DNA of 64,000 nucleotides from the NCBI RefSeq assembly GCF_058153355.1, contig NZ_CM177019.1. One strand, 5' to 3'. Under the pieces are notes generated by a model. The model did not search any database. It was not told the origin of the DNA and saw only the letters and a program-made list of their open reading frames with translations. Positions within the stretch are counted from its first letter, which is position 1, and every line of letters starts with the position of its first letter. Below, in pieces: positions 8,368-8,400 of the stretch. Made by a program: the position numbers and the translations under genes.

Positions 8368-8400
8368 CTTTGTACAATTTTAGCGTATATTGTACAAAGT
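8368..8400. promoter_or_regulatory. 12-bp-arm palindrome upstream of bluR, candidate MerR-type operator
   Basis: ACTTTGTACAAT ... ATTGTACAAAGT inverted repeat about 50 bp upstream of the bluR GTG start. Confidence 0.4.

Follow-up and report, generated by a model that had tools for sequence, protein, structure and literature searches.

From our analysis of the window, a 64,000-nt stretch of DNA, the blue-light locus was found between 5500 and 9800, and its gene names agree with the RefSeq annotation (Escherichia ymgC-ariR-ymgA-ycgZ / bluF / bluR / ycgX). The BluF-BluR-YcgZ/YmgAB pathway is the textbook route by which blue light and cold are sensed and fed into Rcs, curli, and biofilm control in E. 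coli. The locus stretch is 99.5% identical to that of E. coli MFDS1022581 and about 94% identical to that of most E. coli, and the 204-nt spacer between bluF and bluR shows zero differences to K-12 across 8343-8435. The genes, in window coordinates, are the following.

Within 5500-9800, minus strand: ymgC, ariR, ymgA, and ycgZ.
6486..6722, minus strand: ycgZ, with its ATG at 6722 and a Pfam YmgB-like domain, the head of the BluR-repressed ycgZ-ymgA-ariR-ymgC operon.
7036..8247, plus strand: bluF (ycgF), with Pfam BLUF and EAL domains, encoding the anti-repressor of BluR (function from PMC3509220).
8452..9183, plus strand: bluR (ycgE), 243 aa with a GTG start and the Pfam domains MerR-type HTH, MlrA_helical, and MlrA_C.
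9404-9808, plus strand: ycgX.

An additional ORF of 84 aa belonging to the YmgB/AriR family lies 3' of ycgX at 10645-10899 and is annotated in the near-identical MFDS1022581; the matching place in K-12 has nothing comparable and carries ymgL, ymgK, and iraM instead.

In front of bluR lies a 38-nt palindrome, a perfect inverted repeat with 14-nt arms and 10 nt between them, whose right arm ends 49 nt 5' of the bluR GTG. The sequence-only reading had described an inverted repeat with 12-nt arms (ACTTTGTACAAT / ATTGTACAAAGT) about 50 bp upstream of bluR, and these arms were found at 8367-8378 and 8389-8400; of the extent given there, 8368-8400, the end is accurate, the start is one base off (8367), and the perfect arms reach 14 nt. 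Each arm carries a TTGTACAA core, and the two TGTACA hexamers within the arms are separated by 14 nt (centres 20 bp apart). The elements of the bluR upstream region are listed below.

8362..8391, plus strand: putative sigma-70 core promoter of bluR from a promoter scan, with the -35 TTTATA at 8362-8367 and the -10 TATATT at 8386-8391.
8365..8378, no strand: left arm ATACTTTGTACAAT, which holds TGTACA at 8371-8376, about -27 to -22 of the bluR promoter.
8379..8388, no strand: non-symmetric centre TTTAGCGTAT, 10 nt, which together with 8389-8391 makes up the -10 hexamer.
8389..8402, no strand: right arm ATTGTACAAAGTAT, which holds TGTACA at 8391-8396, about -7 to -2, and extends over the putative +1 (about 8398).
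8413..8418, no strand: third TGTACA, about +16 to +21 of bluR.

The window as a whole has no excess of TGTACA (15 copies, with about 15.6 expected), and three of these 15 copies, at 8371, 8391, and 8413, fall inside 48 bp. When 64-kb sequences were simulated under a first-order Markov model, a perfect inverted repeat of such arm length (arms of at least 14 nt, loop of at most 20 nt) arose in 2 of 200 runs. The palindrome is identical in K-12, and 4,594 complete E. coli genomes contain the perfect 38-mer once each; over 4,605 E. coli genomes, the number of places per genome had a median of 1 and a maximum of 2. A dispersed repetitive palindrome of the REP/BIME kind is ruled out by this occurrence at one place per genome. 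The third hexamer is polymorphic within E. coli, reading TGTAGA in strain 21AR0807 and being the only one of the three altered by a common variant in the 61-nt search sample, and it is not conserved in other genera, so it is probably dispensable. In E. coli 2018-11-1BCC (AP027902), the bluR promoter has an IS1 element in place of its -35 region and of the left arm (about 8300-8388), and this allele is a natural operator/promoter mutant.

The 5' end of bluR has been mapped by primer extension to 54 nt upstream of the start codon, and bluR and bluF are sigma-70-dependent genes that form no common operon (PMC3509220). Since this published end lies 54 nt back from the GTG at 8452, the bluR +1 falls at about 8398, inside the right arm. 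With +1 at this position, TATATT at 8386-8391 occupies -12 to -7 and is separated from TTTATA by 18 bp, and the same -10/-35 pair was proposed independently by a consensus promoter scan. The palindrome spans about -33 to +5 of the bluR promoter, with its dyad centre at about -14.5. The sequence-only reading had held that a bluR co-transcribed solely from the bluF promoter would speak against an operator here, and such an arrangement is excluded by the mapped start that bluR has of its own (PMC3509220). SrsR has been reported to activate bluR via another box. Protein on both bluR hexamers would be incompatible with the formation of an open complex, and for this reason we read the palindrome as a repressor site.

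The upstream region of ycgZ provides the reference for this reading. A TGTAC...GTACA motif had been noted just upstream of ycgZ from the sequence, and it is real, consisting of TGTAC(G) at 6779-6784 and TGTACA at 6792-6797, 57-75 nt before the ATG.

6779..6797, minus strand: established BluR operator in the ycgZ promoter, with TGTACA at 6797-6792 (about -39 to -34), 7 nt, and CGTACA at 6784-6779 (about -26 to -21).

The binding of BluR that had been proposed for this motif is already published, with a DNase I footprint, EMSA, and operator mutations (Tschowri et al. 2012, PMC3509220). The footprint on the ycgZ promoter, which is sigma-S-dependent (PMC3509220), covers TGTAC...GTACA / GTACA...GTACA over the -35 and the spacer and was confirmed by the mutations (Tschowri, Lindenberg and Hengge 2012, PMC3509220). 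What was observed at ycgZ is, in other words, already known. The ycgZ operator is identical in K-12, and its hexamer centres are 13 bp apart; its promoter positions are counted from a ycgZ +1 at about 6758. Among 36 related ycgZ promoters, 34 carry TGTAC(A/G)-N7/8-(T/C/G)GTACA, with N7 in 29 and two exact TGTACA in 29, and a TATAAC-like -10 comes after the hexamer pair.

The ycgZ operator and the bluR palindrome are alike in locus, in regulator family, and in the GTACA/TGTACA core, and one hexamer sits at nearly the same promoter position in both (-26/-21 at ycgZ, -27/-22 at bluR). The partner hexamer, however, lies upstream over the -35 at ycgZ and downstream over the -10/+1 at bluR, and the gap between the hexamers is 7 nt at ycgZ (centres 13 bp apart) and 14 nt at bluR (20 bp). 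The ycgZ promoter depends on sigma-S and the bluR promoter on sigma-70, and the ycgZ site is experimentally proven whereas the bluR site is a candidate. The kinship that had been suggested between the two motifs therefore holds for the common core and not for the architecture. Looking at the bluR palindrome for the ycgZ-type geometry (TGTACA, 7 nt, (T/C)GTACA), we found N14 instead, and the only N7 partner of the first bluR hexamer is the degenerate CGTATA at 8384-8389. This departure from the only footprinted BluR operator is a point against a BluR site at bluR. Both sites overlap core promoter elements, and binding at either should therefore repress.

The sequence-only reading had termed the palindrome "MerR-type". 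Canonical MerR operators (merT, copA, zntA, soxS) are dyads of 18-22 bp centred in an over-long spacer of 19-20 bp, from which the regulator activates by distorting the DNA. Like them, the bluR site is a dyad, its core is the GTAC that the mer operator also contains, and its putative regulator has an HTH of the MerR type; but this dyad measures 38 bp, has its centre at about -14.5, reaches from -35 to +1, and lies over a spacer of 17-18 bp. The term does not carry over in the canonical sense, as the palindrome is not confined to a 19-20-bp spacer and the fold of BluR is CarH-like; the promoter positions together with this predicted fold rule out the canonical MerR geometry. The recognition-helix segment of BluR (20 residues) is invariant in our homologue alignment of 18 sequences and is the same in E. 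coli MlrA. By sequence, the closest solved relatives of the DNA-binding domain are CarH/LitR and CarA. The AlphaFold model of BluR (pLDDT 77) consists of a winged helix, a helical bundle, and an alpha/beta domain, and its best full-length structural matches are to Thermus thermophilus CarH, including the DNA complex 5C8E (E = 9e-9), at TM-scores of about 0.3, which are low because the domain orientations differ. A long antiparallel coiled-coil dimer helix after the winged helix was looked for and not found in this model, in which BluR is CarH-like and not a coiled-coil MerR dimer.

CarH and CarA (PDB 5C8E) resemble BluR in having a MerR-type winged helix, a helical bundle, and a Rossmann-like domain, and they are, like BluR, repressors released by light-dependent events, although CarH uses B12 and BluR has no known cofactor. 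The CarS anti-repressor has already been likened to BluF (PMC3509220). CarH-type proteins have their DNA-binding domains tethered to a C-terminal module that oligomerises, and by analogy a variable spacing or orientation of half-sites is conceivable for BluR. CarH itself reportedly binds tandem 11-bp direct repeats as a tetramer.

We then performed a comparative analysis of 80 loci from different species of other Enterobacterales, from Citrobacter to Pantoea, Erwinia, and Mixta, which were fetched via an alignment of 18 BluR homologues and encode regulators of 62-83% protein identity. BluR homologues are widespread in Enterobacterales. The cross-species motif comparison, which had been suggested along with the original observation, shows the hexamer pair to be tightly tied to the regulator gene: an exact TGTACA-N11-14-TGTACA was found within 200 nt upstream of the gene in 64 of the 80 loci, with N13 in 55, N12 in 7, N11 in 1, and N14 in 1. 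With one mismatch allowed, the number rises to 74, for a relaxed motif expected about 0.007 times per 200 bp, and the remaining 679 kb contained two exact matches on both strands together. The second hexamer stands a median of 55 nt from the start codon over the related loci, the same value as in the window. The ariR-ycgZ / bluF-bluR arrangement is present in 37 loci (Enterobacteriaceae), and in the other 43 (Pantoea, Erwinia, Mixta, and relatives) a lone regulator lies beside a divergent XRE-like gene; the hexamer pair occurs in both the Enterobacteriaceae and the Erwiniaceae type of locus despite the different upstream neighbour. The sequence between and around the hexamers varies, except for an A-rich spacer and one to four symmetric flanking bases. 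The dyad symmetry in the homologous loci runs 1-4 nt past the hexamers and then decays, which makes the box look like protein half-sites and not like an RNA stem. On this comparative evidence, the pattern of conservation fits a protein-binding site that is tied to the regulator gene itself.

A minority of loci deviate from the common arrangement. Three loci of the Lelliottia/Huaxiibacter type have a ycgZ-type TATACA-N7-TGTACA before bluR, so that control of bluR by a hexamer pair persists there despite a changed architecture. In three loci of the Pseudescherichia type (including Escherichia sp. ESNIH1), the hexamer pair is absent upstream of bluR, and bluR begins only about 60 nt after bluF. 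Given this short gap and the missing pair, bluF and bluR are probably co-transcribed in these loci. As the N7/8 pair at ycgZ is conserved as well, species with the full module keep two architectures, with a distance between hexamer centres of 13 bp at ycgZ and of 19-20 bp at bluR. No box was found upstream of E. coli mlrA, which rules out self-control as a universal trait of the family. Several Pantoea and Erwinia loci carry a further conserved palindrome, TCTCATATATGAGAT, about 60-110 nt upstream of the hexamer pair; it sits at the 5' end of the divergent XRE-like neighbour gene and is presumably the operator of that XRE-like regulator itself.

AT-rich intergenic DNA readily yields short palindromes and TGTACA is not over-represented window-wide, so the bluR palindrome could in principle be a product of chance or a relic with no present function. 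We regard this as extremely improbable. The arm length is reached in about 1% of simulations, the palindrome is invariant in thousands of E. coli genomes, and of the 80 orthologous or paralogous loci, 64-74 have the pair at a fixed distance to the start codon, where the background would give 0.007 per 200 bp. Rarity in simulations, invariance in E. coli, and family-wide conservation together exclude a chance origin for practical purposes. As to the features of an MlrA/BluR-type operator, two TGTACA-like hexamers in dyad lie inside the perfect 14-nt arms, and the association with the regulator gene is conserved (64/80 exact, 74/80 with one mismatch); the hexamers are separated by 14 nt and not by 12 nt as at csgD. 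In our assessment, the palindrome is very probably a functional operator of the MlrA/BluR family.

Symmetry of this kind could also act in RNA: bluF read-through transcripts could end in a hairpin that serves as a terminator or stabilises bluF mRNA. The palindrome lies 118 nt past the bluF stop codon, and its transcript would fold into a 14-bp stem of -16.9 kcal/mol (z = -5.0 against shuffles). The stem is, however, A/U-rich and followed by UAUUGGG with no U tract, and a terminator scan was negative here. Two better hairpins lie nearer bluF, at 8262-8292 and 8299-8336, and transcription from the bluR start takes in no more than the final 5 nt of the palindrome. Other genera keep the sequence of the hexamers and not the pairing, with complementarity decaying 4 nt outside the hexamers, and the Erwiniaceae loci have no co-directional gene upstream. 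An RNA-level role is, on this balance, very improbable. An intrinsic (Rho-independent) terminator was rejected for want of a G+C-rich stem and a U tract, and an Rfam search of 5200-9900 at E <= 1 returned no relevant RNA family. The hairpins at 8262-8292 and 8299-8336, the latter followed by TTTTAT, are better candidates than the palindrome for the bluF terminator.

Among other DNA-binding proteins, RcdA (YbjK, TetR family) has to be weighed as the protein bound to the hexamers, since its box contains TGTACA and it is known to bind the bluF-ycgZ spacer (PMC3535384). The RcdA box is TTGTnnACA, its own operator reads TTGTGTACAttTGTACACAA, and RcdA boxes have been located within the ycgF-ycgZ spacer by gSELEX and footprinting (PMC3535384). 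The third hexamer of the bluR region reads TCGTGTACA and matches the RcdA box TTGTGTACA at 8 of 9 positions. At the arms themselves, a TTG would be needed directly 5' of TGTACA, but the first hexamer has CTT/AAT and the second TAT/CTT in this position, and the cross-genus consensus there is AGT. A TetR dimer site has close halves and not hexamers 13-14 nt apart, and the RcdA target lists name the ycgF-ycgZ spacer and not the bluF-bluR spacer (PMC3535384). Occupation of the bluR hexamers by RcdA is accordingly most improbable, and an RcdA box is ruled out at both arms by the absent TTG prefix. The ycgZ operator itself reads ATGTGTACA on the plus strand at 6790-6798, one mismatch from the RcdA box; a reported RcdA footprint lies in the bluF-ycgZ spacer, so this ycgZ hexamer may be contested between RcdA and BluR.

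The paralogue MlrA is the rival to be taken seriously. At csgD, the MlrA box has the form TGTACA-N12-TGCACA. It has been given as AAAGTTGTACA(12N)TGCACAATTTT (Ogasawara et al. 2010, as quoted in PMC3509220 and PMC9662190). MlrA would, in this alternative, bind the bluR promoter and set BluR levels, instead of or together with BluR. The bluR architecture is nearer to the csgD MlrA box (centres 18 bp apart in K-12, N12) than to the ycgZ operator, and the TGTACAATTTT at 8371-8381 is the same as the right half of the quoted consensus, AAAATTGTACA(12N)TGTACAATTTT. Because the recognition helix is the same as that of BluR, with identical recognition segments in the two proteins, MlrA could occupy the bluR box, and in Salmonella MlrA and MlrB act on one operator (bioRxiv 10.1101/2021.03.09.434593). 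The two boxes share wide-spaced TGTACA-type hexamers with flanking T/A; they differ in that the csgD box has a 12-nt gap, lies about 100 bp upstream of the -35, and serves activation, whereas the bluR box has a gap of 14 nt (13 in most relatives) and covers -33 to +5. Against MlrA, besides this gap of 14 and not 12 nt, stands the absence of bluR from the E. coli MlrA gSELEX sites as far as these are quoted (Ogasawara et al.). Moreover, the box tracks the BluR-like gene, including ycgZ-bluF-bluR-type loci in many genera, and mlrA itself has no box. Cross-regulation by MlrA is, in our judgement, rather unlikely. An MlrA box proper at N12 was looked for and rejected, since neither upstream of 8371 nor downstream of 8396 does a partner hexamer lie at a distance of 12 nt. 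BluR, for its part, binds the csgD MlrA box, whose hexamers are 12 nt apart, with lower affinity and represses there (PMC3509220).

Our preferred reading is that the palindrome is an MlrA/BluR-type operator through which BluR negatively regulates its own gene, with relief by BluF, and we consider this reading reasonably probable as a whole. The sigma-70 core promoter of bluR would be overlaid by two half-sites of about 10 bp (CTTTGTACAA), each an extended TGTACA. BluR would occupy the hexamers at about -27/-22 and -7/-2, and, once bound, would exclude RNA polymerase, so that bluR would be negatively autoregulated. BluF, upon blue light and low temperature, would pull BluR off the DNA and de-repress both ycgZ-ymgABC and bluR, and the surplus of BluR would then reset the switch. 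We infer that the occupant is BluR rather than MlrA, that the sign is negative, and that BluF brings relief.

A precedent comes from Salmonella, where an MlrA-like operator over the -35/-10 of orf319 (STM1389) is repressed by MlrB and MlrA (bioRxiv 10.1101/2021.03.09.434593). The orf319 operator resembles the bluR box in being an MlrA-type dyad over -35 and -10 that adjoins an MlrA-like regulator gene, and it acts as a repressor site, common to the paralogues, by occluding RNA polymerase. It differs in belonging to another genus and in controlling a gene downstream of the regulator (MlrB) and not the regulator's own promoter.

In the searchable literature, beyond whose reach Tschowri et al. 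2009 and Ogasawara et al. 2010 lie, we found no report of BluR binding or autoregulation at bluR. A literature search for ChIP, SELEX, or DAP data, or for MlrA targets, covering the bluR palindrome also found none. In the text of PMC3509220, the string 'autoreg' occurs 0 times and 'palindrom' once, for ycgZ, and no palindrome or autoregulation is described at bluR. The bluR guide dropped out of PPTP-seq, and the text of the tunable-TF-library paper contains no bluR promoter data. New and testable in our analysis are that the box is conserved across the family, that two spacings coexist, and that the promoter appears to have shifted in Escherichia.

This shift emerges when the position of the box is compared with the promoters predicted in the other genera. 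In 51 of 64 loci, the proximal hexamer reads as TTGTAC and is followed, after 16-18 bp (almost always 17), by TAnnnT (e.g., TAAGGT, TAGGTT, TATGGT), against a background expectation of 6%, and a conserved GTTAAGGT / GTTAGGTT block lies 16-18 bp 3' of the proximal hexamer (loci L012-L082). Because of this excess over background, the proximal hexamer is probably the -35 element of the predicted regulator promoter in most genera. Escherichia and Citrobacter are without that downstream -10, and in E. coli the mapped start lies directly 3' of the proximal hexamer, with the -10 inside the operator spacer. We infer that Escherichia and Citrobacter may have kept the operator while the promoter moved about 27 bp upstream, a comparison that relies on predicted promoters outside E. 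coli.

A bolder and rather doubtful extension would make TGTACA-N13-TGTACA the ancestral self-control box of the whole Enterobacterales MlrA/BluR (CarH-like) family, with the proximal hexamer doubling as the -35 until the Escherichia/Citrobacter promoter slid by about 27 bp and left the box over -10/+1. BluR would then read two geometries (13 against 19-20 bp) via flexible CarH-like tethers, perhaps as a tetramer bridging operators 1.6 kb apart, and a negative feedback in the blue-light switch would have been overlooked for more than 15 years.

Self-control by a repressor is ordinary as such. To our knowledge, current descriptions have BluR in constant supply and ycgZ as its only direct target. 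If the self-operator is true, negative feedback would provide a faster response, a reset after illumination, and a buffering of BluR dosage against BluF, and it would explain why bluR has a promoter of its own. It would also supply a second natural operator, with another half-site spacing, for dissecting DNA recognition in the MlrA family (CarH-like). The cross-genus motif is a ready search pattern for the regulons of uncharacterised MlrA-like regulators in Pantoea, Erwinia, and relatives.

Two minor observations concern the flanks of the locus. At 9304-9313, about 90 nt upstream of ycgX, ACTTTGTACA copies the core of the left arm, where K-12 has ACTCTGTACA; a partner hexamer was looked for nearby and none was found, and the site could be a lone BluR/MlrA half-site or a chance occurrence (about 0.1 expected per window). 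At the other end, a second perfect inverted repeat with 14-nt arms lies at 5369-5400 between ymgC and pdeG, about 107 nt past the ymgC stop, and reads CAAGAATGGAGAAC TATT GTTCTCCATTCTTG on the minus strand; it has no T tract behind it and may be the 3'-end hairpin of the ycgZ-ymgABC operon.
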